Source: an uncultured Gemmatimonadota bacterium
Lineage (GTDB): Bacteria; JAAXHH01
DNA: 64,000 bases
Assembly: GCA_951812955.1 (NCBI GenBank)
Contig: OX638340.1
Span: 3,136,001 to 3,200,000 of the forward strand
Reading direction: 5' to 3'
The notes beneath the pieces are model-generated. The model did no database searches. It was not told the origin of the DNA and was given only the letters and a program-made list of their open reading frames with translations. Position 1 is the stretch's first letter. Every line of letters begins with the position of its first letter. This document shows, one piece after another, positions 11,083 through 48,276 of this stretch. A program made the position numbers and the translations under genes.

Positions 11083-11384
11083 ATGGGGTCGATCCTTTCG
11101 GCAACCTTTATCCGTTCGTACTGAAGCGGGCCTGCTGGCAAAAAGCGCCGGCGCCTGTTCACTAACGCCGCCCGATATGGCGCTAGTGGTACAACCCGGT
11201 AATATAGGTCATCGCGGGCATTCGGGCAAACGCATTTGACATGACGGTTCCGTGCATTGGGCGATTCCTCGCCTGCTGGCATCGCCCATTTCGGTTAAGT
11301 GATCCATCCTGCTAAACTTTCTGACTGACAACCATTGAAAGTTTCGCGGGGTATCGAAAAACCGGTAATAAAGTGGTGAAGGCG

Positions 11385-12388
11385 TCCCGCGCCTAGGTGC
11401 CGTCGGGGTAGACAAGGCGGGTTATTCGGCTAGACAGATCATGGACGTATGTGAACGTCTTGTCACCGGTCAGGCCGTCGATTTCGACCTGCTTGACGCG
11501 CACGTTGCCGAGATGGTCGTAGGCGTACAGGTAGCTGACCTCGGCGGCCGGGTCAGCGTCGGTATTCTCCTCGACCTTTGCAAGGCGCCCCTGGGCGTAG
11601 TTGGGACCGCCACCCGCGATGGCATCGTTGTCTGCGGCATCGCCGTCGTCGTAGGTCATGCGGCTTCGCCACGAGGTGTTGTCGCGTTCGAAGGGGTAGG
11701 TTGCTCTCCGGATCGAGGGAGGCGAACGTGGCCGTCGCCTCGCCCACGCGCGTTACGCGGCCGAAGTCGTCGTAGATTTTGAAGGTGATTTTCTCGGTGG
11801 CGTTGCCCGTGCCTGCAGCCTTCTGCCGCGTGTCCTGTGAAAAACGCACGCGGCCCAGGTCGTCGTACTTGTAGCGGACAGGTCCGTCGGCATCGGGGTG
11901 ATGCCTGGAGGTCATGCGCCCCAGGGTGTCGTAGGCATAGCGCGAGGTGCCGCCGCCCGGCATGGTTGTCGAGACGAGGCGGTCCAGGGCGTCGTAGACA
12001 AAGGACGTTTTGTTGTTCCTGGTGGCGGCACTCGTACCCGCCGAGTCGGCTATGGCATAGCGCATGCGTCCATAGGCGTCGTAGACGCTGGTGGTCAGGA
12101 CCCCCTTTTCGTCGTCTACAGTCCGAAATGAGCGTCCCTGGCCGGACTCGATACCCCAGTTCCCGTAGCGTGAATCGACCGCGTTATCCTGTGTATGCCC
12201 GGGCGGTATGACGCGGGAGACCCTCAGCAGGGGGTCGTCGTCGTAGGAGACTTGAGTGATGCGTTCTGCCGCGTCTGCGCTGGCCAGGGCGCCGTAGGTA
12301 TGCGAAGGCGACAGGTACGCGGGTCCGAGCAGCGTATCGGGTTTATTGACGCGGTTGTAGTTCGTCTGGGTGACGATGTCGTTTGCGC
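11385..12388 (-). pseudogene. truncated, frameshifted RHS/YD-repeat fragment, copy of the core region of the main rhs gene
   Basis: ORFs 11553..12401 and 11393..11659 in two frames are near-identical to aa ~1440-1770 of the 20995..28107 protein. Homology breaks at ~12388 upstream and ~11385 downstream. No toxin tip. Confidence 0.75.
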
Positions 12389-13002
12389 CGGCTCGACGCA
12401 TGCAGCAGAAGATGCACCGACTGGGCTATGGATTGGAACCTCGATGCCAGCCTGACCCTGAATGTTATGGACTACAAACCACTGGCCGAATTCGAACGGA
12501 GGTTAACACGCATTAAGACAGTAGCTTAACTACTTGTCCCATTTTTGGGTGCACTACATGTCATTGCCATATACACGCCTGAAGGTCCGCAACGTGATCC
12601 CCTTGTTGGTAGGACCGCCGGGGTCGTTGGGATGATCTACGTATCCACCCTCATGGACTAATACATGTTCGAGGGATGGGGAGAAATTGGGTTTCATATT
12701 GGTTTCTGAATCCCTTTCGGTGGTGTGTTCTGCATTTGTTTAACCTCTGGTTACCTACACAGATGGTGTTTATAGTGCATTTCCCTCATTTATCACAGTT
12801 CCCGCTCATATGCAAACTCGCACACACCAATTCCCTTTGGGAAGGAGTTGATCGACGTTAACCGATCTTCTCAAAATTCGAACATGGAGGTCAGGCCAAC
12901 TTCATCGCATTAACGTCAGAAATACGTTTTTAACCGAAATACCAGATTCGGACTGTCGCATCTGGTATTTCGGAAATAAATGATAGGTATGAAAGTTCGA
13001 AG

Positions 13003-13355: not shown

Positions 13356-15644
13356 TTAGCGCTCATCGTCATCTGGAATAACCGTTTTTGCTGCTTCCTT
13401 CGCCGTATCGTACGATCCACCCTTCCGATCCGATACGAATTCTCCAGTCTTGGCATCACGATATCTCGGTCCGGTGCCATTAAAAGACGTAGGTTTTATT
13501 CTAAGCCTCGAAATGACATTTAACGTTCTCGAGGTTACCATGTTTAATAAGGTAGCCCTAATTTGGTCTGTGGCTCTTTGGGATGAGCCTTCGAAAAACA
13601 GGGCATCTGCTGTTAGTGCAAACGTTTTTGTTATATCTGCACCTGTACCTATAACTGCCGAGGCTCTTACAGAGCCTAACGATCCTGCCGTTATAAAAGG
13701 ATTCCCTGAAACCAAACCCGCACCGGCACCAACTAAACCACCAGCCACACCGTAATCTGCTCCTGCCGAAACAGCATCGCTAGCTACAATGCTAGTCTGT
13801 ATAGCTTCCTGGATCGCGTCTACTGCAGCAAACCTTAATGTACGAATCTCCGATGCTATTTTTGCATAGAGGTAGTGATGCGGCTCATGATGGCTATTTC
13901 CATCCGGATCCACATACTTGAGCGGATTGTTGTTGGCATAGGCATAGGGGCTCAATCCCGGGTACTCGCCCTGCATGGGATCGGGTCTTAAGAACCTGCC
14001 TATATCGTTAGCGTACGACCTTGCGAGCATGTAGTCAAGGCCGGACTCTGAGTCTCTCTCGTGCCCGGTGAACCGGAAATGCGTGGAACCCGTGCCACTC
14101 AATGCCAAAACCTTGCCGTAGGGCCAGTAGTCGTAGATGGCGGTGACTGTGCCTTCCTCATCCACGAGGCTTCTGGTGCTTCCGAGATGATCGGTCAGGT
14201 AGTAGCTTGCGCTACTTCCTGCTATCCGCGCTATTCTTCTGCTGCCCGCGTACACGTACCTTGCAGATAGCATCTGGCCTGAGTATTCGGCGAGTACGCT
14301 GCCGTCCGCTCCCCGCAGGTAGTAGGTGACGGCCGTTCCGACGGTTTTCTTCACGCGCCGTCGGTCCGGATCCATGAGATACCGTGCGCTGCCGTAGCCG
14401 GTGGTAAGCCCGCGGTAGTCGTAGCTCACCGTATCGGCGCCCCTTCGCGTCATCCACCCGTTTTGGTTGTAGGCGTAGATCTGCCCTCCCGTGCCGGTCG
14501 TGCTGTCCAGCCTGTTGGGTGTGGAGGATGCCGAGTAGTTGTAGGTGAGCGTGGTAGTACCTGTGACCAGGCTGGTGATATTGCCGTTCCTGTCGTAGGC
14601 GTAATCCTGCGAGGCACCGCCCGACGCGTCGAAGCCGGTGATCCGGTACAGGTCGTCGTAGGCGTAGTCCGCGGTCTTGGACGCCGCGGTGCCGTGCCGG
14701 TACACCTGCCTGGTGACGTTGCCCACGTGGTCGTAGGTGAGCGTAGACCTGAACGTGCCTGCATAGTTCAGGTCGGTGACCCATTCCCGCGCGTTGTAGG
14801 TGTAGGATCCGGTGATGGCGCCGTCTCCCGCGCCATCTCCCACTCCGTCGCCCACGGTGTGGGTGGCGATATTGCCCGCTGCGGTGTGGGTGTAAGCGAC
14901 CAGGGTCTTGCCTTGCGCATCCCACACGCGGCTGAGCCGCCCGGCGCTGTCGTAGGCGTAGCGCGCCTGGCTGCCGTCGGGGTAGATCAGGCGGGTTACG
15001 CGCCCGGCCAGGTCGTGGAGGTATGTGAGCGTCTTGTCGCCGGCCAGGCCGTCGATTTCGACCTGCTTGACACGCACGTTGCCGAGATGGTCGTAGGCGT
15101 AATGATGGATGACCTCGGTCGCCGCATCCGCGTCGGTATTCTCCTCGACGTTGGTCAGGCGCCCCTGGGCGTAGTTGGGCCCGTCGCCTGCGGCATCGCC
15201 GTCGTCGTAGGTCATGCGGCTGCGCCAGGAGGTGGCATCGGTCTCGAAGGGGTAGGTGCTATCGGGATCGAGGGAGGCGAACGTGGCCGTCGCCTCGCCC
15301 ACGCGCGTTACGCGCCCGAAGGCATCGTACACGGTGTAGGTAACCTTGCCGGTGCCGGCAGCGCGCTGCCGCGCGTCCTGTGAAAAACGCACGCGGCCCA
15401 GGTCGTCGTACTTGTATTGCGTGGCCCCGTCGGCATCGGGGTGATGCCTGGAGGTCATGCGCCCCAGGGTGTCGTAGGCATAGCGCGAGGTGCCGCCGCC
15501 CGGCATGGTGGTCGAGGTGAGTCGGTCCAGGGCGTCGTAGGCGAAGGATGTTTTGTTGTTGCGGGTAGCAGCGTCCGTGCCCGCCGAGTCGGCTATGGCA
15601 TAGCGCATGCGGCCGTAGGCGTCGTAGACGCTGGCGGTTGCCAC
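13356..15644 (-). CDS. orphan RHS C-terminal cassette (YD repeats + DPDG switch + glycine-zipper-rich toxin tip)
   Basis: Near-identical to the main rhs through YANNNPLKYVDPDG, then a unique ~190-aa C-terminus with GVAGGLVGAGAGLVSG. Homology continues upstream to ~15848, where an in-frame TAG sits. Confidence 0.75.
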   Translation of the reverse strand: MATASVYDAYGRMRYAIADSAGTDAATRNNKTSFAYDALDRLTSTTMPGGGTSRYAYDTLGRMTSRHHPDADGATQYKYDDLGRVRFSQDARQRAAGTGKVTYTVYDAFGRVTRVGEATATFASLDPDSTYPFETDATSWRSRMTYDDGDAAGDGPNYAQGRLTNVEENTDADAATEVIHHYAYDHLGNVRVKQVEIDGLAGDKTLTYLHDLAGRVTRLIYPDGSQARYAYDSAGRLSRVWDAQGKTLVAYTHTAAGNIATHTVGDGVGDGAGDGAITGSYTYNAREWVTDLNYAGTFRSTLTYDHVGNVTRQVYRHGTAASKTADYAYDDLYRITGFDASGGASQDYAYDRNGNITSLVTGTTTLTYNYSASSTPNRLDSTTGTGGQIYAYNQNGWMTRRGADTVSYDYRGLTTGYGSARYLMDPDRRRVKKTVGTAVTYYLRGADGSVLAEYSGQMLSARYVYAGSRRIARIAGSSASYYLTDHLGSTRSLVDEEGTVTAIYDYWPYGKVLALSGTGSTHFRFTGHERDSESGLDYMLARSYANDIGRFLRPDPMQGEYPGLSPYAYANNNPLKYVDPDGNSHHEPHHYLYAKIASEIRTLRFAAVDAIQEAIQTSIVASDAVSAGADYGVAGGLVGAGAGLVSGNPFITAGSLGSVRASAVIGTGADITKTFALTADALFFEGSSQRATDQIRATLLNMVTSRTLNVISRLRIKPTSFNGTGPRYRDAKTGEFVSDRKGGSYDTAKEAAKTVIPDDDER

Positions 15645-16367
15645 GCCCTTCTCATCGTCTACGGTCCGGAACGACCGTCCCTGGCCGGACTCGGTGCCCC
15701 AGTTCCCGTAGCGTGAATCGACCGCGTTATCCTGTGTATGCCCGGGTGGTATGACGCGGGAGATCCTCAGCAGGGGGTCGTCGTCGTAGGTGGTCTGGAT
15801 GATGCGTTCTGCAGCGTCTGCGCGGGCCAGGGCGCCGTAGGTATGCTAGGCGGCCGGTGCACAGACCTGAGGACGTGCTTGGGAAGGCTCGTCCGGTTGT
15901 ATCTCGATCGGGCTTCTACATCGCCGGCGCCAGACCCAACTCTGGTCTGTATACAGAGCGCCAGGGTCTATAATCCGCCTGGTACAGTATCAGCCACATA
16001 GGCGAAGTCTGTTGCACAGAACAAGACATCGTCGGTCCACCAATGGTCATGACCGGCCGTATCATTACGGACAGACCGACCTATGAGACTGTATAGAGGC
16101 ACACCGAGGTCGTTTATGATGTTCTGATGTTTTCATTTGTGAGCCTTCTGCATTTACTCTCAACTGACCACCGACAAAAGTGAAACCGGGCTTGCCACGA
16201 CACCTGATCTACCAAAACAGTGGGTTTAGCCAGACCGGAAGAATCCATTGAGTACGGTACCTATAAAACAACTCTGTCCTTGCTTCAAAATAACACAGGA
16301 CCTGGACAAGCTGCGTTCCTATCAACAGCAGGCAACAACCTGTCCAGGAACCCGGCATATACCCAAC

Positions 16368-17061: not shown

Positions 17062-18918
17062 TCAGGGTTGCTGCTGCCTAATTAACTTTTGTCCTTCACT
17101 ACGCAATCGGTCCGAAGCTGCCTTCTCGGCCTCAAGCGCGGCCTGTCGCCCCGGAACATCGGTTTCAACTATCCGTGCCGAATAGGTTCCAGCCCCCTCT
17201 TGGCGGTTGAACGCATTTACCTGCGTGTTCGCACGGGGTGATGTACCGTCTACGTTAAGCGGCCTACCACTGATTCCCGTTTTGACCACATCACCAGTTT
17301 CTGTGTTGTAGATTTCGTATCGATGTTGCGGCTTGGTACTGAGTTTCGAGTTACCATGAATCGCGCTTCTAGCAGCGTCCGCCGCGTCGGCGCCTTGATC
17401 TGCCGCACGAGTTCCTCGTAGTACTTTAATGAGCGTACCGGCACCACCTGGCACGCCTGGAGCAATGGTTGCCGCCACATCCACGACGAGGCCGACCGCA
17501 TCAAGTGCTGCCCAACCGTAACTGCCCTAGCGGATATTCTGAGCCAGCGACGCCGCACCAATCCCGATGTTGACGACATCCCAGATTGTCTCGGCGGCTC
17601 TTCCATCCGGATCCACATACTTGAGCGGATTGTTGTTCGCATAGGCATATGGACTGATCCCCGGATACTCGCCCTGCATGGGATCGGGCCGCAGGAACCT
17701 GCCGACATCATAAGCGTACGACCTTGCGAGCATGTAGTCAAGGCTGGACTCTGAGTCTCTCTCGTGGCCGGTGAACCGGAAGTGCGTTGAGCCGGTGCCG
17801 CTCAAGGCCAGAACCTTGCCGTAGGGCCAGTAGTCGTAGGCGGCGGTGACGGCGCCTTCCTCATCCACGAGGCTTCTGGTGCTTCCGAGATGATCGGCCA
17901 GGTAGTAACTTGCGCTGTCTCCCGCTATTCGGGCGATCCGCCTGCTGCCGGCGTACACGTACCTGGCAGAGAGCGTCTGACCCGAGTATTCGGCCAGGAC
18001 GCTGCCGTCTGCGCCGCGCAGGTAGTAGGTGACGGCGGTCCCGACGGTCTTCTTCACGCGCCGTCTGTCGGGATCCATGAGATACCGTGCGCTGCCGTAG
18101 CCGGTGGTAAGCCCGCGGTAGTCGTAGCTCACCGTATCGGCGCCCCTTCGCGTCATCCACCCGTTGGGGTTATAGGCGTAGATCTGCCCTCCCGTACCGG
18201 TGGTGCTGTCCAGCCGGTTGAGTGTGGAGGCGGACGTGTAGTTGTAGGTGAGCGTACTGGTACCTGTGACCAGGCTGGTGATATTTCCGTTCCTGTCGTA
18301 GGCGTAGTCCCGGCTCGCGCTGCCCGACACGTCGAAGTCCGTGATCCGGTACAGGTCGTCGTAATCGTAGTCCGCGGTTATGGACGCGGCGCTGCCGTGC
18401 CGGTGCACCTGCCTGGTGACGTTGCCCGCGGGATCGTAGGTGAGCGCGGACTTAAACTTACCCGCATAGTTCAGGTCGGTGACCCATTCCCGCGCGTTGT
18501 AAGTGTAAGCACCAATGACGATGCCGTCTCCCGCGCCATCTCCCACTCCGTCGCCCACGGTGTGGGTGGCGATGTTGCCCGCTGCGGTATGGGTGTATGC
18601 TGCCAGGGTTTTGCCTTGCGCATCCCACACGCGGCTGAGCCGCCCGGCGCTGTCGTAGGCGTAGCGCGCCTGGCTGCCGTCGGGGTAGATCAGGCGGGTT
18701 ACCCGCCCAGCCAGGTCATGGACGTATTCCAGCGTCCTGGCGCCGGTGAGGCCATCGATGGTCACCTGCTTGACGCGCACGTTGCCCAGGTGATCGTAGG
18801 CGTAGAGGTGGGTGACCTCGGCGGTCGCGTCGACGTCGGTGTTCTCCTCGACTTTGGTCAGACGCCCCTGGGCGTAGTTGGGTCCGCTGGAGACGGCATC
18901 GCCGCCGTCGTAGGTCAT
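17062..18918 (-). pseudogene. orphan RHS C-terminal cassette 2, interrupted by an in-frame TAG at 17527-17529; toxin tip possibly GIY-YIG-like
   Basis: ORFs 17527..18918 and 17062..17484 are in the same frame, separated by a single amber codon. RHS homology through VDPDG, then a unique tip containing HRYEIYNTETGDVVKTGIS. Confidence 0.7.
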
Positions 18919-19291
18919 GCGGCTGCGCCAGGAGGTGTTGTCGGGGTGACGCGGATGAGGCCGTGTTTACTCGGAGTAATTGGGCTTGCTAGGAGCGGAT
19001 AGTGAGTAAAGCACTTACCTAGTATGTCGCCTTTGCATGCGACGGGTCCAATCCGACCGGCTACCGTTGCGTCGAAGGCGGCCTGAAGCCACTCAGTCGT
19101 TCAGCCTTGTCCTAAATTGTCAGCATGATTTGCTGAGATTGGTTTTCTTGATTCTCTACAACAAATGTCTGACGCTCAATTCTCATTGTAGCATCTGTCT
19201 ATCCAACGTAGCAACTATGAACTCCATCGAATAAACCATTCAAACATCCAAGCCGACGTACCTACAGGACATTGTTAGTCCGTTCAGAAGC

Positions 19292-20170
19292 CTAAGGATC
19301 TATGTCGTCAAGGCGTATGTCTGTCGATCTAACCGATACCGTTCTCAATTTCGGACTGTCCCTGTTGCCAATTTCATATGTCCACTCTTTGTGCAGATAC
19401 ATCGTATCATGACCGGTTCCCATATCCAGTTCTTCAGTCTCACATCGCCCTACAAGCGTATCATCGGTTAACTCGTATTCATTTGAAAGCAGCCTGAAAT
19501 CTCGCGGATGCCCCTTATACTGCGTTAGCTGAATCCAATCAGCTACAAACTCGTCGACACTTTCTCGGCTTTGCTTGGGAACATGCTCAAGTTTGGGATA
19601 CTGCAATTGGTCATTATATGATACATACGCCGTTGTGTCATCTGGGGAATGGATTCTCTCCTCAAAACCGTTAAGTTTTAAAAACGCAAAGTGCTTTCCC
19701 AGATCCAACTCTTCGAAGGCTGGCCCATAATCTCTTGCTATAATTCCCAGTTTGTAAGGATAAGATTCTGGCGAATCAGGTGGGTAGGCCATATATACAT
19801 CTATCCCAATAAACTTCCGCTGTTGCAATTCACACCTGTAGTCTTTTATACGATCGAGTGTGGGAAACGACAGGCTCTCCAACTTCGTTAACGCTTCATT
19901 TATCGATCCGGGACGATCCTCTTGGATATTGTTGTTATGTTTTTCTTTTGCATTAACGGATTCATCGCGCTTGAACCAATTTCTGAGTTTAAGAATGGCT
20001 GTTTCATATTCAAAATACGCTACATAGTATCGACACAACTCAGCATATCGTCCTTCGTCTTTACTTTGATCCGATTCCTCGGCATACATATTCATTGTAA
20101 AAAAGAAGCACCATATAGATGCCACAGATAACCTTCTTGTTGAACTACTCATGTTGGTTCTTTTGTTCAT
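19292..20170 (-). CDS. secreted hypothetical protein, paralog of 20167..20979 (immunity-like)
   Basis: N-terminal hydrophobic signal. Shares DEFVADWIQLTQYKGHPRDFRLLSNEYELTDDTLVGRCETEEL with the neighbour. Low GC. Confidence 0.5.
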   Translation of the reverse strand: MNKRTNMSSSTRRLSVASIWCFFFTMNMYAEESDQSKDEGRYAELCRYYVAYFEYETAILKLRNWFKRDESVNAKEKHNNNIQEDRPGSINEALTKLESLSFPTLDRIKDYRCELQQRKFIGIDVYMAYPPDSPESYPYKLGIIARDYGPAFEELDLGKHFAFLKLNGFEERIHSPDDTTAYVSYNDQLQYPKLEHVPKQSRESVDEFVADWIQLTQYKGHPRDFRLLSNEYELTDDTLVGRCETEELDMGTGHDTMYLHKEWTYEIGNRDSPKLRTVSVRSTDIRLDDIDP

Positions 20171-20979
20171 GGAGACACACTCGGTACTGAAGCATTGTCA
20201 TCACTCGACGATTCGCGAGTTCTATCAAACAACTCATGAAGATCATTTCGTACTTCACGTGACAGCTCTTTCAAGACCGGCGTGCCTTCATTCGGTATTT
20301 TGTACTTCCATAGTTTATATACAACAGTCCCCTTTGGAATCAACGGTCCGTGGTGTAATTCGGCTGTTGTACAAATTCCCAAAACGTCGCCGTTTTCTAA
20401 CTGATACACGTTGGATAGTATCCTGAAAAAGTTGGGATGATCATTGAACTGCGTAAGATGAACCCAGTCCGAAACGAATTCCTCCATTTTTTTCGGATCT
20501 TCAACTGGCACGTCTTTACTACTGAAATCCAGCCAGTCGTCATATGAGAATTTAGTCAAGACCAGTCCGCCCCACGTGTTTTCTTCGTAAAACCCATAAA
20601 AGCGAACAATGTTAAATTGATCGTCTATGCCGATTTTGTACGGTTTACTATCGGATATCCCTCGTCGGACCATGAATACATCATAGGTCAGGAATCTTCG
20701 AGGTAACCTGCTAGTGGGGAAATTAAACACTTGTATGATTTCATGATCCATTGGTATAGGAATTTTACTGACCAGTGCTTCGTACATATCGGGGCGGTCC
20801 CAATTGGCGTCTTGTGATGAGTCCATCAGCGTGCGTTTCTTGTACGCGACGGTTGTCGCTAATTCAAAGAAGGCAACGTAGTGTCTAATTACCTGTGCTT
20901 TCACGCTGTATCCGATTTTCTGTTGGTCATCAGCATCGACCAACATCAGTCCCGCCAGAACACACCAGACCGCCCCCAT
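20167..20979 (-). CDS. secreted hypothetical protein, candidate cognate immunity protein of the main Rhs toxin
   Basis: Starts 16 nt after the rhs stop. Paralogous to 19292..20170 (EEFVSDWVHLTQFNDHPNFFRILSNVYQLENGDVLGICTTAEL). Confidence 0.5.
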   Translation of the reverse strand: MGAVWCVLAGLMLVDADDQQKIGYSVKAQVIRHYVAFFELATTVAYKKRTLMDSSQDANWDRPDMYEALVSKIPIPMDHEIIQVFNFPTSRLPRRFLTYDVFMVRRGISDSKPYKIGIDDQFNIVRFYGFYEENTWGGLVLTKFSYDDWLDFSSKDVPVEDPKKMEEFVSDWVHLTQFNDHPNFFRILSNVYQLENGDVLGICTTAELHHGPLIPKGTVVYKLWKYKIPNEGTPVLKELSREVRNDLHELFDRTRESSSDDNASVPSVSP

Positions 20980-20994
20980 TACTACTCACCTCCT

Positions 20995-23900
20995 CTACTG
21001 TTGCTGCTGTTTCTCAAGTTCTTCCCACTGTTTCCTGAACTTTTCCTGGGCTTCTTTAGCTCTTATTTCGTGAGGTTGATCGTCGTAATCGTACATAGCC
21101 TTCTCAAGCTCTGTTTGTTTGTAGAACTTCGTTGTGCTTTCTATCGATTCGAGTTTTCCTAGTGCTTCGGCAATGTGGAATAGTTCTTCTATCATAGTAC
21201 TCTCTACCATTCCTGCATTACCCTTAATCAACGCCTCATTGATATATGCCACTGAACCTGTTTGAGGGATTATCACCTCTTCTATTTCATCGATGGTTCT
21301 GGCGAAGGCAGGAAAATACCGGAAGTGTATCTGGGCAAGTCCACGGTACGTTTCACCGTCTGGAGCGATATCAAAAACGAATTCCTGAGTAGCTTTATGT
21401 ACATGGTTGTACAACTGATTCCCGATTTCTGTCTTCCTCAGGTTGGCGAAATAGCCCTCGAATCGTTTCCTTTCTACGATCGACAGATCAGATGAGAGTT
21501 TGATAACCCTCCCATCCGGGTCCACATATTTAAGCGGATTGTTGTTGGCATAGGCGTACGGGCTCCGTCCCGGATACTCGTCCTGCATGGGATCGGGCCG
21601 CAGGAATCGGCCTATATTGTAAGCATACGTCCTTGCAAGCATGTAGTCAAGGCCGGACTCGGCGTCTCTCTCGTGGCCGGTGAATCTGAAGTGCGTCTGC
21701 TCTGATCCGCCGGATGCCAGGATATCGCCGTAGGGCCAGTAATCGTAGGCGGCGGTGACCGTGCCTTCCTCATCCACGAGGCTTCTGGTGCTTCCGAGAT
21801 GATCGGTCAGGAAGTAGCTTGCGCTACTACCTGCTATCCGCGCTATTCTTCTGCTGCCCGCGTACACGTACCTTGCAGATAGCATCTGACCCGAGTATTC
21901 GGCCAAGACGGATCCGCCTGGTCCCCGCAGGTAGTAGGTGGTCACCGTGCCTACGGTCTTCTTCACGCGCCGTCTGTCGGGATCCATGAGATACCGTGCG
22001 CTGCCGTAGCCGGTGGTAAGCCCGCGGTAGTCATAGCTCACTGTATCAGTGCCCTTGCGCGTCATCCACCCGTTCGGATTGTAGGCGTAGTTCTGCCCAC
22101 CGGTGCCGGTGGTGCTGTCCAGCCTGTTGGGTGTGGAGGCGGACGTGTAGTTGTAGGTGAGCGTACTGGTACCTGTGACCAGGCTGGTGATATTTCCGTT
22201 CCTGTCGTAGGTGTAGTCCTGCGAGGTACCGCCCGACACGTCGAAGCCGGTGATCCGGTACAGGTCGTCGTAATCGTAGTCCGCGGTTATGGACGCGGCG
22301 CTACCGTGCCGGTACACCTGCCTGGTGACGTTGCCCACGTGGTCGTAGGTGAGGGCGGACTTGAACGTGCCGGCATAGTTCAGGTCTGTGACCCATTCCC
22401 GCGCGTTGTAGGTGTAGGATCCGGTGATGGCGCCGTCTCCCGCGACGTCGCCCACTCCGTCGCCCACAACGTGGGTGGCGATATTACCCGCGGCGGTGTG
22501 GGTGTAAGCAGCCAGGGTCTTGCCTTGCGCATCCCACACGCGGCTGAGCCGCCCGGCGCTGTCGTAGGCGTAGCGCGCCTGGCTGCCGTCGGGATATATG
22601 AGCCTGGTGATGCGCCCAGCCAGGTCGTGGACGTATTCTACCGTCTTGTCGCCGGTCAGGCCGTCGATGTCGACCTGCTTGACGCGCACGTTGCCGAGAT
22701 GGTCGTAGGCGTACAGGTAGCTGACCTCGGCGGTCGCGTCGGCGTCGGTGTTCTCCTCGACGTTGGTCAGACGCCCCTGGGTGTAGTTGGGTCCACCGCC
22801 TGCGGCATCACCGTCGTCGTAGGTCATGCGGCTTCGCCAGGAGGTGGTATCGCGTTCGAAGGGGTAGGAGCTTTCGGGATCTAGGGAGGCGAACGTGGCC
22901 GCTGCCTCGCCCACGCGCGTTACGCGCCCGAAGGCATCGTAGACGGTGTAGGTGATTTTCTCAGTGGCGTTGCCCGTGCCTGCAGCCTTCTGCCGCGCGT
23001 CCTGTGAAAAGCGCACGCGGCCCAGGTCGTCGTACTTGTAGCGGACTGGTCCGGCGGCATCGGGGTGATGCCTGGAGGTCATACGCCCCAGGGTGTCGTA
23101 GGCGTAGGTGGTGGTGGCGGTCAGCGGCCTGGCGGTAGTGCCTCTCTCTGGCATGGTGGTGGAGATGAGGCGATCCAGGGCGTCGTAGACAAAGGACGTC
23201 TTGTTGTTGCGGGTAGCAGCGTCCGTGCCCGCCGAGTCGGCGATGGCATAGCGCATGCGTCCGTAGGTGTCGTAGACGCTGGTGGTTGCCACCCCCTTCT
23301 CATCGTCTACGGTCTGGAACGATCGTCCCTGGCCGGACTCGATACCCCAGTTCCCGTAGCGGGTATCGACCGCATTATCCTGTGTGTGCCCGGGCGGGAT
23401 GACCTGCGATACCCGCAGGAGGGGATCGTCGTCGTAGGAGACTTGAGTGATGCGTTCTGCCGCGTCTGCGCGGGCCAGGGCGCCGTAGGTATGCGAAGGT
23501 GCCCGGTATACGGGACCAAGCAGGGTTTCGGGTTTATTGACGCGGTTGTAGTTCGTCTGGGCGACGATGTCGTTTGCGCCGGCGCTGGCGCGGGTCTGTA
23601 TCTGCCTGGCCAGGCCGTCGAAGGAGGAGGCCACCATCTCGGCGGCGCCGACGTAGAGGTTTGCGAGATATCCGTTTCCGGTCTCTCCCCGGGCCCTGAA
23701 GGCGGGCGTCCAGTTCGCGGGGACGGAGACCGAGGCCGACGCGCCCTTGAAGCGGGTCGTCTCATGACCGTAGAGCCACGCGTTCACGGTGCCCGTGGGC
23801 TGGAGCTCCATCTCCACGCGGGCCCAGGGCCATCTCCGGATGTATCCGGGCACGAAGGCCGAGGAGGCGGTCTGTCCGTCCACCCTGCTTTCAAGTTTTA

Positions 23901-26900
23901 CGGATCCGTTCTCGTAGACCACGCGGACGTGGTCGTCCCCGTCCTCGAAGGCCATGATGACGGTTTTTCCCGAAGATGCCGAGGCCGGATGAAAGTCGGC
24001 CCTTGCGGTGACGTGGCCGCCGACTCTTCCGGTTTCCAGGACGGAGGAGGGTCCGAGTTTCACGGACCGCTTCCCTGCCTTCTCCTGGTTATAGGCGACT
24101 CCCCCGCTGCCGGTGACCTGATCTTCGCCTGCCTGGGGGTCGATCGCAGCGCGGAACTCCGCGCCGGCCTTCGCCTGGAAACCGGTCGTCAGACGTACGC
24201 GTACACTGGCGCGCAGATCCACGGTCTCGCCGGAGGCGATGACGTAGGGGGCATCGGTTTCAAGACTGACGCCCTCCTCGAGGCGGTCGCCCGTGCCGCG
24301 GGCTACGATCCGGTGTCCGTCTCTGGAGAGATCCTTGTGGCCGTCCCTGGAAGGATAGGCGATAACGGTCTGCCGGTTCGGTCTGGCGGTGTTGTACGCG
24401 CTGAAACCGCCGATGCCGCGCGAGAAGCGGTGGTCCCGCTGGGCGGTTATGCGTCCCCTGCTGTCGCTTGCCTGAACGACACGCCTGAGACCGTCCCTCA
24501 GGTACCTCTCGGTATGTCCGTTCGGATCGGTGACGGCGACGGCGTCCAGCGTTACGGGATCCCAGGTGGTCATGACGCCGGGCTGAGCGCCCTGGGGCCA
24601 TACGCGCAGGTTGTCGAAAGCGGCGGCGCCTTGCAGCGCGCCGTTGGCCAGCTTCACGGCGTCTACGACGCCTCTGCGGCCCCTCATGTCCCAGACACCG
24701 GTTGTCGGATAGCGCACGCCGTCCACGTGGGCCCACCATCGCCCGTTCTTCCAGGCGATGCGCAGGCGGTGCCATCGGCCTGGTTCATAGTCGGCGCCGG
24801 TGTCTGTGAGGGCCCCGGACTGGATCACCCGGATGTGTCCGTCCCGGTCGAAGATCCACTGGATGCGGTTCCGTCCCAGGGTTATTTCGGTGCGCTCTCC
24901 GGTGGTCGGCACCCTGACGTCGATCTCGAACACGCCGGCGTCCAGGACGGTCAGGGTACGTTCGGCCACGGCATTGTCCACGGAGAGTGCGCCGCCCTCC
25001 AGGGTGATCGCGCTGCGCCGCCTGTTGTCGGTCCTGCGCCACGAGCCCGCGGCGGTGAGCGCGTCCCAGCCGGCAAGGTCGTCGAAGACCTCGGCGGTCA
25101 CCTGCGAGCCGGAGGCGCCGGTGAAGGCGGCCACGGGCCGCATCCTGCCGTAGCCCATGACCGTGGTGGTGACGGTGCCATGGGCGTCCTGTGCCTCGAT
25201 CAGGTTGCCGTAGGCGTCGTAGCCGGTGGCCACCTCCCGGTCGATCCACTCGCTCGGGCTCACCTGGCCGTCGCTGTCCTTATCGAGCCATACCGAGGTG
25301 GTATCCGGCATGACGATGCTACCTCCGTTGAACCGCCCATAGCGGTACCTGGTGGACTGCAGCCGGGCGCCGGATCCGTCCTTGACCGTGACCACGTGAG
25401 GGCGGTCCAGGATGTGTGCATTCTCCAGGAACACGTCATCGGGATCGTCGGCGTTCTTCCCGGCGACCTGGATATCCTTTGCGTATATCCTGATCTTGCG
25501 GTACACGGCCTGCTGCGGCTTGTATACGCCGGCGTAAAGCGTGAGATTGACTCGGGCGCTGTCCGTGTTCGAAGGTACAGGTACAAGGACGTCGAAGGAT
25601 TCCTCCTTCGGATCGGGCAGCCCGCCGGCTACAGGCACAACATGCGTTAGCGATGCTGCCGAACGGTAACCGCCGTCCTTCCAGTCGACAGTCACCGTGG
25701 CGCCGGCGTACATGTTGTCTCCGCCCTGCAACTGATCGGTCCCGAGGACGCCGCGGATGTGCAGCACATCGGTGCCGGACACGGAGAAGCGGCGGCCCTC
25801 GAAATCGTAGAATCCGGCGCTCTCAGTGACTGAGCCCGCATTCAGGAAGGCCTCCACCGAGGCCGTGGGCGGATCGTCCCGGCTCAGGAAGGCGGCGTGG
25901 ACCCGGTCACCGGTCGAAATGGATGTGTCGAGGACAGGCTGTCCGAAGGCCAGGGCCACCGGACTGCTTGTTACCGCATCTGCGTGATAGCTGGTCTCCG
26001 TGACGCGCAGGGTACGGGACCCGGATTTGAGCGTCTGCGTTGCCACTAGGCCGTTCCTGGCGTTGTGCGTCTGCTGTGTCGTGGTACTTACCCCGTCCCT
26101 GGTGGTCGTCGTCTCCCCTGCTCGCAACCAGTAGGCCTGCTGGGGGATACCCGGATGGTAGAAACTCTGCGACTCGCCGGTCCAGGTTCCCTGGGTCGTG
26201 ACCTGCCAGTCCGTCCGCTCCCGCTGGACCACTGCGCCAATACCGTCGTGCCAGGTTACCTCCTTGAGGAGCCCTCTTCGGATATCGCGTTCGGATTCGT
26301 GCTGCTTGTTCCTGGCCGAAAGCCCCAGGGCGTTCAAGTCGGCTTCGCCTACGAAGTTGCGGCGTATCTTGCCATGGGGCCCGGGCAGGATCTCGTCGAC
26401 GATGGGGAAAGTGATGCGGCGCACGCGATTGGCATTGACGGTCTCCATGACCGCATCGGTCTGGACGTAGACGAACGTAGTCGTATCCGCTACCGCGCCG
26501 CCCAAGCCGTCCGCGTCCCATATCCTGCGCTTGATGCGGCGGGACCGGTCGAAATAGGCGTCATCGTAAGCAAGCGAGGTGTCAGGATTTGTAATCTCCT
26601 CGTAGTCTATCTTCATCTCCCCGCCCGTGGGCGCGACGATCTTCGTAATACGGTAGCTGTCCGCAAGGGTGTTGGTGAAGCGATACGGCGGCAACTGGTC
26701 GCCGGCCGAGTTCCCTGTTCCCTTGATGGCGATTTCCTCGAGCAGCAGCGTGCGCGCATTATCCCCCGAGGCTACGGCAGGCCGCGGAGGACCGCCGTTG
26801 GCGCCGTTGTAGCGGAAGACGTATCGGGCGATCTGATTGCCATCCACGTCCGTAACCTTCAGGGCATCGAGACGGTGCGTACTCGCAAGGCCGTCGTACA

Positions 26901-28107
26901 TCCGGTAGTTCCGGTTGTCGGTGACCAGGTGATGGCCGTAGGACAGGGTCTCACCGGACGGCGTGTCGAAGTAGTTGTCATAGGTGATCACCACACCACC
27001 GCGAGAGGCAATCTGGATGTCGGGCCTGGCGCTGGTCTCGGTCGTGATCTTGCGTACGACCTTGCCATCTGTGCCGGCGAGGATGACCGTGTCGAGGTGC
27101 GCCGTGTTAAACGTCTTGACTACGGTCAGGTTGGTGCGGCTCTGACCAACCGTTATCCCGCCGGGAAACCGCGGGTCGATGTCCGCGTAGTCGAGCAGGT
27201 TGCGAAAAGAGCGCGTGGTTTCGGCCCGTTCCCTCGCCCTGTCCCGCACGGTGGTCACCGGACCGTCAGAGGTATACCGGAAGCGGATCGTGTTGCCGGC
27301 CTGGTCCCGGATCTCGGCCAGGTTCCACTGGTATACCATCTCGGGCATGAGTTCGTTGAAACCCCCCTGCTGTACCGCGCCGCCCTTGACGGTCTGGTTC
27401 ATGCCGTAGTCCTTGCCCGAGATCGTAACGGCGCCGAAAGTGTAGACCAGGCCCGATACGGTCTTGACCGTCCAGGTGGAGGAAAGCGGCGCATTCCTGT
27501 CGAAGTTCCACCTGATGTCCATGAAGCGCCTGTTCTCGGCGTAATAGACGTTGGTGGCGGGTAGCGCTACTCCCGGAGTGGCGGCGCGCTGCGAGTCGTC
27601 CAGTTGTCTGACGAGACGGTGGGAGCCGTCGGGAAGCACCAGGGAGAGATTGAAGGAAAAAGGATGGTTGATGGGACTACTCACGTCGCGCAGGTTGTAG
27701 CCGCCGGTCACCCTGATGGCCCCGAACTCCAGGTTCCATCCCAGGCCCACCCACGTGGCGTTATTGAGCGTAACCGTGCCCTTGCTGTTGGACTTGATCT
27801 GCTCGGCCGTGCCCAACTTGATCAGACGGTCGGTACCCGTCACCGCGCTGCTGTAGCGCATGCGAATGGGCAGGGACATGCCGCCCGCGCCTTCGACGTC
27901 GCCTAGCGGCACCGCGTAGGACCAGTTGCCCGAAAAGTAGTCAACCTGATCCGCGTCTATGACGCCGGAGAGGCTGTCGAAGTCGTAGGCGCTCTTGGAG
28001 GCATCTGTGATCGGCGTCTGCTGGCCGTGAACGATTGGCGCCGCCGTGGAGAGCATGAGGATGCCGATGAGCATCCTCACAGCGAAACAGCACAGGTGTC
28101 TTTGCAT
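20995..28107 (-). CDS. giant RHS/YD-repeat polymorphic toxin with Sec signal, SpvB-like N-terminal region and C-terminal toxin domain
   Basis: ATG at 28107 with SD AAAGGAG. Signal MQRHLCCFAVRMLIGILMLSTAAPIVHG. SpvB/TcB-like GLGWNLEFGAIRV. Long run of YD repeats. RHS core end YANNNPLKYVDPDG followed by a unique 200-aa tip. Confidence 0.85.
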   Translation of the reverse strand: MQRHLCCFAVRMLIGILMLSTAAPIVHGQQTPITDASKSAYDFDSLSGVIDADQVDYFSGNWSYAVPLGDVEGAGGMSLPIRMRYSSAVTGTDRLIKLGTAEQIKSNSKGTVTLNNATWVGLGWNLEFGAIRVTGGYNLRDVSSPINHPFSFNLSLVLPDGSHRLVRQLDDSQRAATPGVALPATNVYYAENRRFMDIRWNFDRNAPLSSTWTVKTVSGLVYTFGAVTISGKDYGMNQTVKGGAVQQGGFNELMPEMVYQWNLAEIRDQAGNTIRFRYTSDGPVTTVRDRARERAETTRSFRNLLDYADIDPRFPGGITVGQSRTNLTVVKTFNTAHLDTVILAGTDGKVVRKITTETSARPDIQIASRGGVVITYDNYFDTPSGETLSYGHHLVTDNRNYRMYDGLASTHRLDALKVTDVDGNQIARYVFRYNGANGGPPRPAVASGDNARTLLLEEIAIKGTGNSAGDQLPPYRFTNTLADSYRITKIVAPTGGEMKIDYEEITNPDTSLAYDDAYFDRSRRIKRRIWDADGLGGAVADTTTFVYVQTDAVMETVNANRVRRITFPIVDEILPGPHGKIRRNFVGEADLNALGLSARNKQHESERDIRRGLLKEVTWHDGIGAVVQRERTDWQVTTQGTWTGESQSFYHPGIPQQAYWLRAGETTTTRDGVSTTTQQTHNARNGLVATQTLKSGSRTLRVTETSYHADAVTSSPVALAFGQPVLDTSISTGDRVHAAFLSRDDPPTASVEAFLNAGSVTESAGFYDFEGRRFSVSGTDVLHIRGVLGTDQLQGGDNMYAGATVTVDWKDGGYRSAASLTHVVPVAGGLPDPKEESFDVLVPVPSNTDSARVNLTLYAGVYKPQQAVYRKIRIYAKDIQVAGKNADDPDDVFLENAHILDRPHVVTVKDGSGARLQSTRYRYGRFNGGSIVMPDTTSVWLDKDSDGQVSPSEWIDREVATGYDAYGNLIEAQDAHGTVTTTVMGYGRMRPVAAFTGASGSQVTAEVFDDLAGWDALTAAGSWRRTDNRRRSAITLEGGALSVDNAVAERTLTVLDAGVFEIDVRVPTTGERTEITLGRNRIQWIFDRDGHIRVIQSGALTDTGADYEPGRWHRLRIAWKNGRWWAHVDGVRYPTTGVWDMRGRRGVVDAVKLANGALQGAAAFDNLRVWPQGAQPGVMTTWDPVTLDAVAVTDPNGHTERYLRDGLRRVVQASDSRGRITAQRDHRFSRGIGGFSAYNTARPNRQTVIAYPSRDGHKDLSRDGHRIVARGTGDRLEEGVSLETDAPYVIASGETVDLRASVRVRLTTGFQAKAGAEFRAAIDPQAGEDQVTGSGGVAYNQEKAGKRSVKLGPSSVLETGRVGGHVTARADFHPASASSGKTVIMAFEDGDDHVRVVYENGSVKLESRVDGQTASSAFVPGYIRRWPWARVEMELQPTGTVNAWLYGHETTRFKGASASVSVPANWTPAFRARGETGNGYLANLYVGAAEMVASSFDGLARQIQTRASAGANDIVAQTNYNRVNKPETLLGPVYRAPSHTYGALARADAAERITQVSYDDDPLLRVSQVIPPGHTQDNAVDTRYGNWGIESGQGRSFQTVDDEKGVATTSVYDTYGRMRYAIADSAGTDAATRNNKTSFVYDALDRLISTTMPERGTTARPLTATTTYAYDTLGRMTSRHHPDAAGPVRYKYDDLGRVRFSQDARQKAAGTGNATEKITYTVYDAFGRVTRVGEAAATFASLDPESSYPFERDTTSWRSRMTYDDGDAAGGGPNYTQGRLTNVEENTDADATAEVSYLYAYDHLGNVRVKQVDIDGLTGDKTVEYVHDLAGRITRLIYPDGSQARYAYDSAGRLSRVWDAQGKTLAAYTHTAAGNIATHVVGDGVGDVAGDGAITGSYTYNAREWVTDLNYAGTFKSALTYDHVGNVTRQVYRHGSAASITADYDYDDLYRITGFDVSGGTSQDYTYDRNGNITSLVTGTSTLTYNYTSASTPNRLDSTTGTGGQNYAYNPNGWMTRKGTDTVSYDYRGLTTGYGSARYLMDPDRRRVKKTVGTVTTYYLRGPGGSVLAEYSGQMLSARYVYAGSRRIARIAGSSASYFLTDHLGSTRSLVDEEGTVTAAYDYWPYGDILASGGSEQTHFRFTGHERDAESGLDYMLARTYAYNIGRFLRPDPMQDEYPGRSPYAYANNNPLKYVDPDGRVIKLSSDLSIVERKRFEGYFANLRKTEIGNQLYNHVHKATQEFVFDIAPDGETYRGLAQIHFRYFPAFARTIDEIEEVIIPQTGSVAYINEALIKGNAGMVESTMIEELFHIAEALGKLESIESTTKFYKQTELEKAMYDYDDQPHEIRAKEAQEKFRKQWEELEKQQQQ

Positions 28108-28293
28108 GGTGAACTCCTTTAACATGGATGAATTGGAAAGGGGGTTGAATGAAACGCGCGATGTCAACGCATGGATGTATCGGATGAAGACCGGCATGAT
28201 GCGCTCCTTGATGGCGGACGGAACAGCCGCCCGGCATGGATCCTGCAACTCGTTATCGGGATGTGAGACTGAAGTCTTTGCGGGCATGAAATG

Positions 28294-28565: not shown

Positions 28566-29390
28566 TCACCGATTCTTCTCCAGATCTGAAAGGCGCCTCT
28601 CCAGCGACTCGATGTAATGCTGCTGCGCGGCAAGCTGCCGCGTCTGCTCGTCGATGAACTTCCGCTGGGAAGCCAGTGCCCTGTGCTGGTCGATGGTGTA
28701 GAGCATGAGCTCCTCCACTTTCTCCAGCAGCCGGGTCTGCATCCGGCCGACGCTGACGCCTTCGGCTTCCATCTCGGCGCCCGGGGCGATGCCCGGAAGA
28801 TGACCGCGGGTTCGGATATGTTCTTTCAACGCGTCCAGGGACATGAGGTCGTAGTCCTCGTCGAACACGTAGTCGGCGGGCGTGACGTCCTCTATGTGGA
28901 TCTCCTCGGCCTTGATGCGGCCGTCCACGACGAGCCGCTCGTCCGGATCGTCCACGCCGATGCCCACGTTGCCGGTCAGCCGATAGACGTTGTCGTCCGA
29001 CACCGACCAGGGACTGCCCGCCAGCGCCGTGACGCGGAACGTCGCACTTGGCGAGTTCGTCATGGTACCCAGCTTCACCGTTACGTTCACCCGGCCCGGC
29101 TTAGCCGCTGCAATCGTCAAAGTGTTGCCGGAAACGCTGACCGTCACCAGATTCATGTCCGAAGACGTGGCGCTGAACCCGAGCGTGCCGATCATGCCGG
29201 TGACATAGATTGACAGATCCAGTTCAAGCTGGCCGCCGACCGCCAGGAACTGCGCCGGGATGGACTTCAGCGTCGGCGTCGACTGGTCGGGGACGGGTTC
29301 GTCTAACGCGTCTGCAAGCAGGGCTCCGGCATGCACCTTCGGTGTGATAAGCGCTGCCAGCATTGAAATGGTCAATAGAATCCTAAGCAT
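28566..29390 (-). CDS. secreted protein: Ig-like domain + conserved C-terminal fibre-like coiled-coil module
   Basis: ATG 29390 with SD AAAGGAG. Signal MLRILLTISMLAALITPKVHA. C-terminal ~165 aa about 70% identical to the C-terminus of the adhesin (WSVSDDNVYRLTGNVGIGV...LLEKVEELMLYTIDQH). Confidence 0.6.
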   Translation of the reverse strand: MLRILLTISMLAALITPKVHAGALLADALDEPVPDQSTPTLKSIPAQFLAVGGQLELDLSIYVTGMIGTLGFSATSSDMNLVTVSVSGNTLTIAAAKPGRVNVTVKLGTMTNSPSATFRVTALAGSPWSVSDDNVYRLTGNVGIGVDDPDERLVVDGRIKAEEIHIEDVTPADYVFDEDYDLMSLDALKEHIRTRGHLPGIAPGAEMEAEGVSVGRMQTRLLEKVEELMLYTIDQHRALASQRKFIDEQTRQLAAQQHYIESLERRLSDLEKNR

Positions 29391-29461
29391 GAATTGCTCC
29401 TTTCTGCGGTTAATGGAAATTGTGTCTCTGCGATCCTCATGGGACTGCGGGTTTCCGGTCA

Positions 29462-34663: not shown

Positions 34664-34737
34664 GATATATCCTTTCATGGTATGCATCTGTTGGCAGATG
34701 GATTTGTACCGGCCGGGCCCTCGCCCGGTCCGGGTGG

Positions 34738-35118
34738 TCAGTAGCTCCATATCGTCGGCCTGGGAATGCCCGGCGCCTTGTCGAGGTCGTCGACGTGCAC
34801 GTAGCGGCTCCGGAAGTCCCCCCGCTGCCTGATGCCGATGCCGGTGAAACCGAGCATCAGCGCCATGCGGACGAGCCGGTGCGCCTTGTCGCCCGATATC
34901 GCGATGTCGACGGCCCGGCCGGCCAGATGGGCCGAACGGGACCTGCCCCCCACCTTGGCGTTGTGCTGGGGCGATCTGTACGCCGAGGTGACGATCAAAG
35001 GGAAACCGAGTTCCTCGCGCAGCAGCACGAGCCTGAGCATGAATCGCTCGTCCATCTCGTGCCTGCCGGTGTCCGGCGAGGAAAGGATCTGGTTCGGGAA
35101 GTACGGCCACGACTTCAT
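34738..35118 (-). CDS. peptidase M15 (VanY/YcbK-like zinc D-Ala-D-Ala carboxypeptidase fold), endolysin-like
   Basis: SAYRSPQHNAKVGG, SAHLAGRAVDI, YVHVDD zinc-ligand motifs. ATG 35118 preceded by SD AAGGAGG. Confidence 0.7.
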   Translation of the reverse strand: MKSWPYFPNQILSSPDTGRHEMDERFMLRLVLLREELGFPLIVTSAYRSPQHNAKVGGRSRSAHLAGRAVDIAISGDKAHRLVRMALMLGFTGIGIRQRGDFRSRYVHVDDLDKAPGIPRPTIWSY

Positions 35119-35247
35119 TTGCAAACCTCCTTGCCTTCCTTCCCCGGGACCCGATTTGTCGAACCCTCGGGGAAAGAAGACCTGTATGTACTGCGGTGAA
35201 CGATATGAACGCTTCTGCCAGGCGAACCGGATGACCCGGGTACGCAT

Positions 35248-35496
35248 TCACTTGAGCCGGCGGATCGTGAATGCGGGAGTATCCCATGCAGGATCACCTG
35301 CGTCCGCGTTCGGGGTGCTATGCGGAAGGACGCCGGACCGCCGGGTGGTCGCCCGGACGGTCCGCTCCTTCCCCTTCAACTGCTTGACGGCGGCTGACGG
35401 ACCGCCGTGTGCGGGCTTCCGATCGTTGCCGGGAGCCCTTGTATCTGCTTTGAGACCAACGCTGGTCGATCCTGCATCCGCGCGTTGCCGCTTCAT
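35248..35496 (-). CDS. small basic hypothetical protein
   Basis: 82-aa K/R-rich ORF. Start overlaps the stop of 35493..35702 (ATGA). Weak. Confidence 0.25.
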   Translation of the reverse strand: MKRQRADAGSTSVGLKADTRAPGNDRKPAHGGPSAAVKQLKGKERTVRATTRRSGVLPHSTPNADAGDPAWDTPAFTIRRLK

Positions 35497-42658: not shown

Positions 42659-43378
42659 ATGGATTCGACGGGTCAATCGGACTGGTTAATGGCAAAATTG
42701 GACGCACACTACAAGGGACACCGTAGCCGACTCCGTGAGCGGTTCCAAAAGAGTGGATTTGGTGGATTCGCTGAGCACGAGGTCATTGAGTTACTGTTGA
42801 CGATGGCCATGACCCGTTCGGACGTAAAACCACAGGCCAAGATGTTGCTTGAGCGTTTTGGCAGTCTGCGAGGCATTTTGGATGCACCAGTATCCGAACT
42901 GCAGTCGGTAAAGGGAATTGGTGAGATTTCAGCCATACTACTGAAAGTTATCCGTGAATCGGCGACGATGTATTTATTGGAAGCATCAAAAGAAACAGAA
43001 GTCCTCAGCGATCCGGAGCGGCTCAGCAATTTCTGGCGCATGCGAATCGGCCATCTTAAGAACGAAGTGTTCGCTGTCGCTTACCTTGATTCAGCTTATC
43101 GGTTGTTGCGTAATGGCGTAGAAACGCTTCAGGAAGGTACGATAGACCGTGCAGCGGTGTACCCGCGCCGCGTCGTGGAGGCGGCACTTAATCGCCAGGC
43201 GGCGGCCCTCGTGCTCGCGCACAACCATCCGAACGGCGATGTCGAGCCGAGCGAACAGGACAAGATGATAACACGCGCCGTCACGCTTGCAGCCGAAACC
43301 ATCAGCATACGAGTCGTCGATCATCTAATAGTGTCGGCCTCGGAGACTTTCAGTTTCAGAAAAGCGGGACTGCTATGA
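42659..43378 (+). CDS. radC: RadC-like JAB/MPN domain protein
   Basis: JAMM motif LAHNHPNGD, ExnS region. N-terminal HhH-like segment (GIGEISAILL). Confidence 0.8.
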   Translation: MDSTGQSDWLMAKLDAHYKGHRSRLRERFQKSGFGGFAEHEVIELLLTMAMTRSDVKPQAKMLLERFGSLRGILDAPVSELQSVKGIGEISAILLKVIRESATMYLLEASKETEVLSDPERLSNFWRMRIGHLKNEVFAVAYLDSAYRLLRNGVETLQEGTIDRAAVYPRRVVEAALNRQAAALVLAHNHPNGDVEPSEQDKMITRAVTLAAETISIRVVDHLIVSASETFSFRKAGLL

Positions 43379-46239: not shown

Positions 46240-46306
46240 TGTCCAAGGAATTCTTTATTCTCATCCAAAATCGGATGATGTTTGGCAAACCAAAAGGAAC
46301 CTGAAA

Positions 46307-48274: not shown

Positions 48275-48276
48275 CC

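Follow-up and report, generated by a model that had tools for sequence, protein, structure and literature searches.

We examined a window of 64 kb (64,000 nucleotides) from an uncultured Gemmatimonadota bacterium (GenBank assembly GCA_951812955.1, contig OX638340.1, positions 3,136,001 to 3,200,000 of the forward strand), focusing on a large rhs gene on the minus strand at 20995..28107 (coordinates are those of the window throughout). An earlier note on this DNA had read its product as a Sec-exported fusion of the Tc toxin subunits TcB and TcC (a BC fusion). The gene comprises 2370 codons and a stop and specifies a product of 2370 amino acids (aa). According to the list of open reading frames (ORFs) and their translations, it is contained in an uninterrupted ORF at 20995..28287 (-), and it is a real gene. 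Its start at 28107 corresponds to Met61 of the longer ORF. We judged this start to be the right one because a Shine-Dalgarno sequence, AAGGAG, lies at 28119-28114 (-), 6 nucleotides (nt) 5' of the ATG, and because the relatives of the protein begin at the same MQR... in the alignment. Residues 1 to 28 (28024..28107, -) are, as judged by inspection, a predicted Sec-type signal peptide, MQRHLCCFAVRMLIGILMLSTAAPIVHG/QQ (the slash marks the predicted cut). It has a basic n-region, a hydrophobic core in which 11-residue Kyte-Doolittle windows score 1.8-2.3 from aa ~4 to ~26, and V-H-G before the predicted cut. The signal peptide is kept in alignments of the relatives, and inspection and conservation together agree with the exported protein that had been proposed.

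The C-terminal half of the protein is matched by the Pfam family RHS_repeat and the NCBIfam family YD_repeat_2x. The canonical shell, consisting of a DUF6443-like start and YD/RHS repeats, covers aa ~1491-2122 (21742..23637, -). We considered DUF6443 as an N-terminal delivery domain and rejected it, since in the relatives it maps to the equivalent of aa ~1490-1590, the start of the canonical shell. The Rhs-associated core with its aspartyl autoprotease follows at aa 2123-2200 (21508..21741, -), where NCBIfam TIGR03696 matches aa 2123-2199 (E = 2e-20). Together with the RHS and YD repeats, this match confirms the Rhs shell and core described in the earlier note. Against PDB sequences, the best matches (mosquito SGS1, RhsP, and Tse5) were in the core region only. 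A possible aspartyl-protease motif just before DPDG had also been pointed out; it is present as D2172 and P2191xxxxD2196xxG2199, residues that are invariant in the family alignment. In alignment with SepC and a Bacillus TcC, D2172 and D2196 fall on their two conserved Asp residues. Positions P-5 to P-1 read D-P-D-G-R and fit the TcC cleavage rules (PMC7861908), and the pairing of Asp at P-3 with Arg at P-1 has been shown for TccC3 of strain TT01 (PMC7861908). Because PxxxxDxxG and D-P-D-G-R meet these rules, we predict that the protein is cut after R2200, which would free a tip of 170 aa. This variable C-terminal tip, a presumed toxin, spans aa 2201-2370 (20998..21507, -). It had no homologue in 5.8 billion proteins or in the PDB and no Pfam or PADLOC match. 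From the tip onward into the downstream genes, GC content drops to 0.47.

Searching with the N-terminal 1400 aa, we retrieved 36 relatives with 40-97% identity, most of them full-length. They come from Gemmatimonadetes metagenome-assembled genomes (MAGs) wherever the source names them, and species-representative genomes contributed two MAGs of Latescibacterota and one labelled Planctomycetia. An exact look-up of the rhs protein itself in public assemblies gave no record. Conservation runs to ...YVDPDG and then vanishes in alignments of 17, 37, and 32 sequences. The tips of the relatives carry differing toxin Pfam domains (Ntox24, Tox-URI2, and DUF5675 by scan, with more from precomputed accessions). 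A conserved shell with a varying tip, as seen in these alignments, marks the family as polymorphic toxins. One relative, P0001, is 97% identical to the rhs protein and appears to bear a different tip.

Two candidate immunity genes lie directly downstream on the same strand. Gene 1 (20167..20979, -; 270 aa) begins 16 nt past the rhs stop codon, and gene 2 (19292..20170, -; 292 aa) has a signal-peptide-like N-terminus. The two are paralogous (26% identity; E = 7e-29). Farther downstream are three fragments of rhs. The first, an orphan 3' cassette at 17527..18957 (-), corresponds to aa 1748-2208 and has its tip curtailed after ~24 aa, whereas the second, at 13356..15872 (-), corresponds to aa 1532-2199 and carries a different tip of 180 aa; both contain Rhs_assc_core. 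The third, at 11378..12392 (-), corresponds to aa ~1509-1848 and is tipless, with an RHS_repeat match. Nucleotide identity to the main rhs gene is 87%, 87%, and 85%, respectively. In the third fragment the match shifts reading frame, and tblastn split it in two pieces. In two of the three, the match to the main gene stops at the DPDG codons, where the sequences part. Judged by these matches, the fragments form a classic orphan-cassette arrangement. With its variable tips, candidate immunity genes, and orphan cassettes, the locus is arranged like that of a polymorphic Rhs toxin used in competition and unlike an insecticidal Tc locus. Candidate immunity gene 2 begins with MNKRTNMSSSTRRLSVASIWCFFFTMNMYA/EE, which is convincingly signal-peptide-like and hints at periplasmic immunity.

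At the other end of the protein, the earlier note had reported SpvB-like motifs behind the signal peptide, and both occur verbatim: GNWSYAVPLGDVEGAGGMSLPIRMRY at aa 60-85 and GLGWNLEFGAIRV at aa 121-133. SpvB was the sole Pfam match in eight of nine family N-termini (best E = 2.7e-4). Among 1.84 billion (1.84e9) representative proteins, 63 were retrieved by a family profile built on aa 30-712. Five remote matches (P0061, P0063, P0085, P0086, and P0088) exceed the SpvB gathering score, at 25.8-38.4 bits, and their SpvB matches are collinear with the rhs protein, aa ~50-134 corresponding to model positions 3-80 and aa ~205-290 to positions 118-219. The same intermediates were matched by a hidden Markov model (HMM) of three TcB/SpvB N-terminal sequences. 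When the N-terminal alignment was used in another word-indexed search for homologues, seven close fragments alone were returned and no distant relatives, and phmmer found nothing between the rhs protein and SepB, Bacillus TcB, or SpvB. We accept the N-terminal ~300 aa as a divergent SpvB/TcaC-like domain (aa ~50-300; 27208..27960, -) by remote homology. The larger N-terminal module, ~690 aa, is collinear in many signal-peptide-bearing YD proteins, mostly from Bacteroidota. A SpvB-type N-terminal module would thus be common to a wide set of such proteins that Pfam leaves unlabelled. In a side observation, the motif FSG.WSY..PL....G.GG..LP....YSS ... WVGLGWNL was seen to open many large signal-peptide-bearing YD proteins of Bacteroidota (L012-L085), among them proteins of Pedobacter, Chitinophaga, Flavobacterium, Fluviicola, and other genera; most of those scanned had no Pfam label at the N-terminus.

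TcB binds TcA through its propeller, which serves as the gate. A beta-propeller had been claimed for the middle of the rhs protein as well, and here our results disagree with the earlier note. Propeller-type Pfam repeats were missing at E <= 10 from every 500-aa block of aa 1-1500, and an HMM of the TcB propeller segment (SepB plus Bacillus TcB) matched neither the family members nor the remote relatives. TcdB_toxin_midN and TcdB_toxin_midC had no match at E <= 10 in aa 1-1500, and a weak midN match was seen in one remote relative only, P0063 (E = 0.0011). When SepB and Bacillus TcB are compared, the ~310-aa propeller sits between "...APLEFDY" and "...KPYLLKRTTNNIGYSSSFFY". In the rhs protein, "QLPPYRFTN" (aa 471-479) and "YRITKIVAPTGGEMKIDYE" (aa 485-503) are five residues apart. 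By our own inference, QLPPYRFTN and YRITKIVAPTGGEMKIDYE would be the equivalents of the motifs that flank the TcB propeller. They fall in a conserved beta-hairpin region at aa ~301-705 (25993..27207, -), which has collinear profile matches to signal-peptide-bearing YD proteins. AlphaFold draws long hairpins across aa 270-700, with low to moderate pLDDT (predicted local distance difference test). The propeller is likely absent, although not proven to be so.

The middle of the protein instead carries three inserted beta-rich domains. The first is an all-beta sandwich at aa ~710-890 (25438..25980, -; AlphaFold pLDDT 75-92). The second, at aa ~1003-1175 (24583..25101, -), is a concanavalin A (ConA)-like lectin jelly roll that resembles ERGIC-53, VIP36, and galectins, in keeping with the LamG-like middle domain that had been expected. 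The third, at aa ~1350-1490 (23638..24060, -), is all-beta and sandwich-like; the second model gives it pLDDT 75-88. Between the inserts there are hairpin motifs of the YD type, such as YDAYGNL (aa 963). The stretch between the second and third inserts also holds a single "coathanger" unit at aa 1289-1323 (24139..24243, -; NCBIfam NF045639 GCX_COOH, 28.2 bits with a cutoff of 26). The coathanger motif is usually described as a stacked triple.

Two AlphaFold models were made, of aa 1-1200 and aa 1171-2370, from alignments of 37 and 32 sequences, respectively. Apart from the three inserted domains and a single run of YD hairpins, they are not to be trusted; global Foldseek template-modelling scores from both are meaningless. 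By Foldseek E value, the N-terminal model is closest to mosquito SGS1 (PDB 8FJP; E = 1.2e-13, with the next match at 1e-8). The C-terminal model matches type VI secretion system (T6SS) Rhs cores, SGS1 (E = 7e-17), Tse5, a bacterial teneurin-like protein, teneurins, and TcdB2-TccC3, with E values from 1e-11 to 1e-18. The bacterial teneurin-like structure 9ifo is one of many such shell-level matches. SGS1 is also the best PDB sequence match for the rhs core (E = 7.8e-24). It consists of a Tc-like shell whose wall holds a carbohydrate-binding module and a lectin domain as inserts (PMC9935623), and the rhs protein appears to share such a large Tc-like shell with inserted domains, a resemblance that rests on low-confidence models. 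Unlike the rhs protein, SGS1 is a secreted eukaryotic protein; it has two propellers and a wedge domain, and internal helices take the place of a small toxin tip. We treat the SGS1-like layout as a lead suggested by the models and not as proof.

With both ends and the middle described, the BC fusion can be weighed. Taken literally, it would mean that a TcA pentamer encoded elsewhere docks the protein and injects its tip into eukaryotic cells. The two ends do resemble Tc TcB-TcC proteins (TcdB2-TccC3, PDB 4O9X and 6H6G; SepB/SepC): they share the SpvB-type N-terminal strands, the Rhs core, the two catalytic Asp residues, PxxxxDxxG, and a D-x-D-G-R site as in TccC3 of TT01, making up a TcC-type cleavage motif. 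Size fits as well, as the ~2200 aa before the tip are near a TcB + TcC shell (in the comparators, TcB measures 1428-1454 aa, to which TcC adds its first ~675-680 aa). Fused B-C genes occur naturally, and tc genes are sometimes scattered around the genome (PMC7861908); B. pseudomallei provides an example of such a fusion. However, the rhs protein apparently lacks the TcA-binding propeller and shows no signal of the TcdB mid domains, and there is no TcA gene in the window or beside eight relatives, as searched by tblastn with SepA and Bacillus TcA. Furthermore, the Tc comparators start straight at an SLPKGGG-type motif without a signal peptide, the 170-aa tip is shorter than the 201-400 aa of 97.9% of TcC hypervariable regions (PMC7861908), and candidate immunity genes and orphan cassettes typify Rhs, not Tc, loci. 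A genuine Tc BC fusion is therefore highly improbable. Of the earlier claim, the layout, the size, and the likeness of both ends stand, and the propeller does not; TcdB_toxin_midN/midC matches and a Tc-type locus are likewise missing. The protein would work like a cocoon-type carrier. Because no TcB-type propeller was detected and no TcA gene lies in the window or beside the eight relatives, it is probably not a Tc BC subunit in the sense of having a TcA partner.

The Foldseek matches of the C-terminal half, closest to T6SS-linked Rhs cores (8qjd, Tse5, and RhsA), would also suit an ordinary Rhs effector of a T6SS encoded elsewhere in the genome. The N-terminus argues otherwise, as it has a Sec signal peptide, and no Pfam domain for a PAAR, VgrG-binding, or chaperone-binding head was found in the protein. 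In addition, a SpvB-like, lectin-bearing extension of 1490 aa precedes the canonical core, and T6SS genes are missing both from the window and from the loci of the eight relatives. We consider this explanation extremely unlikely. Pfam scans of the 64-kb window found no genes for TcA, T6SS, T9SS, or T2SS, so the absence of TcA and T6SS from the window, as stated in the earlier note, is supported by these scans and by tblastn with two TcA proteins.

The SGS1 match and the lectin domain raise a different possibility, namely that a secreted or surface cocoon binds glycans of a eukaryotic host or grazer, as an adhesin and/or a toxin, comparably to SGS1 and teneurins. SGS1 is the best structural match of the N-terminal half, the ConA-like lectin resembles ERGIC-53, VIP36, and galectins, and the relatives come solely from uncultured MAGs, some of whose isolate names may point to sponge metagenomes. 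Just upstream of rhs on the same strand (28566-35287) are a giant adhesin gene, encoding a 1941-aa protein with Big_9/Big_2/cadherin-like repeats, and a gene for a 299-aa protein with an Ig-like (immunoglobulin-like) region and a coiled-coil tail. Both are syntenic in one Gemmatimonadetes MAG (L007 2451-9457; 43% and 70% identity, respectively). On the other hand, other relatives have no such adhesin pair next to them, the tips of the relatives include the bacterial polymorphic-toxin domains Tox-URI2 and Ntox24, two paralogous genes occupy the immunity-gene position, and orphan cassettes are present. Lectin domains are also equally able to bind bacterial surface glycans. A eukaryote-directed role seems rather unlikely to us. 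We separately considered the upstream adhesin as an obligatory partner of the rhs protein and rejected it: the pair is syntenic in L007 and absent in L001 and L008.

The rhs protein is probably a self-contained polymorphic Rhs/YD cocoon toxin of the class that combines a signal peptide, a SpvB-like head, and RHS repeats, targeted by its own lectin-like domains and independent of TcA. Its action may be pictured in four steps. The signal peptide suggests that the protein would first be exported by Sec. The SpvB-like strands, the hairpin regions between the inserts, and the YD repeats would then close into one shell of approximately TcB + TcC size; this step follows from homology and length accounting, as the models are too poor to show it. 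Next, the Rhs core would seal the shell, and D2172 and D2196 would cut after R2200, leaving the 170-aa tip loose inside. Here the motif is present in the sequence, and the cleavage is suggested by the biochemistry of TcC and Rhs proteins. Finally, if SGS1 and teneurins are a guide, the three beta-rich wall inserts, including the ConA-like lectin, would project from the shell and attach to the surface of the target. The protein most likely serves in competition between bacteria, and recombination at the conserved core would supply new tips. We favor this role because the tips vary, two candidate immunity genes follow the gene, and three orphan 3' cassettes lie nearby. We further suggest, tentatively, that a TcB + TcC-sized cocoon lost the TcA-docking propeller and gained three outward binding domains, becoming a lectin-guided, Sec-exported vehicle in a single polypeptide whose tip release is unrelated to TcA or T6SS. 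This scenario is possible but doubtful.

Several observations weigh against the reading of a self-contained cocoon toxin. The SpvB link of the rhs protein is transitive, as judged from the sequence comparisons: the claim of SpvB-like motifs stands through the verbatim motifs and the remote homology via relatives, but the protein's own score against Pfam SpvB (PF03534) is 14.2 bits, below the cutoff of 22. Likewise, hhalign gave a probability below 1% when the family N-terminus was aligned to SpvB and to a TcB alignment, and the N-terminal profile had no match among PDB sequences, with no TcB among them. The HMM of the TcB propeller rests on only two sequences, and the models are too poor to provide structural proof that aa 300-700 lack a propeller. 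The mean pLDDT of 57.6 (aa 1-1200) and 49.9 (aa 1171-2370) is poor in both cases, which places a single large cocoon beyond the reach of the models. The activity of the tip is only presumed, as it has no homologue from which to infer one. The two candidate immunity genes had no match in Pfam, NCBIfam, or PADLOC, and their immunity role is suggested by position. Within the source genome, the search for TcA, T6SS, and T2SS covered the 64-kb window only. Lastly, the lectin-like domains and a likely host-associated lifestyle also fit a eukaryotic target.

The architecture itself is not new. A class of TcdB/TcaC-type polymorphic toxins with a signal peptide, SpvB, an integrin-like propeller, RHS repeats, and a variable tip was catalogued by Zhang et al. 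in 2012 (PMC3482391). The rhs protein shares with this class the signal peptide, the SpvB-like head, the RHS repeats, and the variable C-terminal toxin, as well as cassette-style diversification and candidate immunity genes downstream. It differs in having no detected integrin-like propeller, with the three beta-rich inserts (one of them a ConA-like lectin) in its place, and in a SpvB domain that is too divergent for Pfam. Gemmatimonadota are also outside the distribution listed for the class (PMC3482391). The family is apparently a propeller-less, lectin-decorated variant in lineages that were not listed for it.

Rhs/YD cocoons are understood when they are carried by a TcA injector or a T6SS spike. 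In contrast, it is unsolved by what route WapA, the bacterial teneurin-like proteins, and other Sec-exported cocoons get to their targets and into them (PMC13018210). Like WapA of Gram-positive bacteria and the teneurin-like proteins, the rhs protein combines a Sec signal with a YD shell around a polymorphic tip, (candidate) immunity genes, and no obvious delivery machinery (PMC13018210). The heads differ, being cell-wall-binding in WapA or composed of TIP, FN-plug, and NHL in the teneurin-like proteins; we found no Pfam match to NHL or a related domain in the rhs protein. The family would add a third type of head for Sec-exported cocoons, SpvB-like and apparently propeller-less, with lectin-like domains. 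We presume that the source lineage is diderm, which adds a membrane compared with the Gram-positive hosts of WapA, and an outer-membrane step would then be needed too. If an injector-less vehicle is indeed at work, the family and its many Bacteroidota relatives would offer a tractable model for cargo delivery by YD cocoons that have no injector. The practical use is modest: besides a new tip, the family offers inserted binding domains that might serve to retarget cocoon-type carriers.

The other genes of the window are, according to Pfam scans, housekeeping genes or belong to a type III restriction-modification and helicase-nuclease island. The latter block (43375-51120, +; GC 0.49-0.54) encodes a UvrD-helicase/PD-(D/E)XK nuclease, an N6/N4 DNA methylase, and a type III Res-like helicase, and it looks like a restriction-modification or defence island. 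In the locus of a distant relative, P0035 (L002), a secretin/OmpH/PilN/PilO cluster lies upstream of the gene and a recombinase comes after it (L002 1-9227 and 21026-27140). Judging by the TIR, ThsB_TIR, LD_cluster3, Nmad2, and MazG_C domains of genes near P0035, there may be a defence island there as well.

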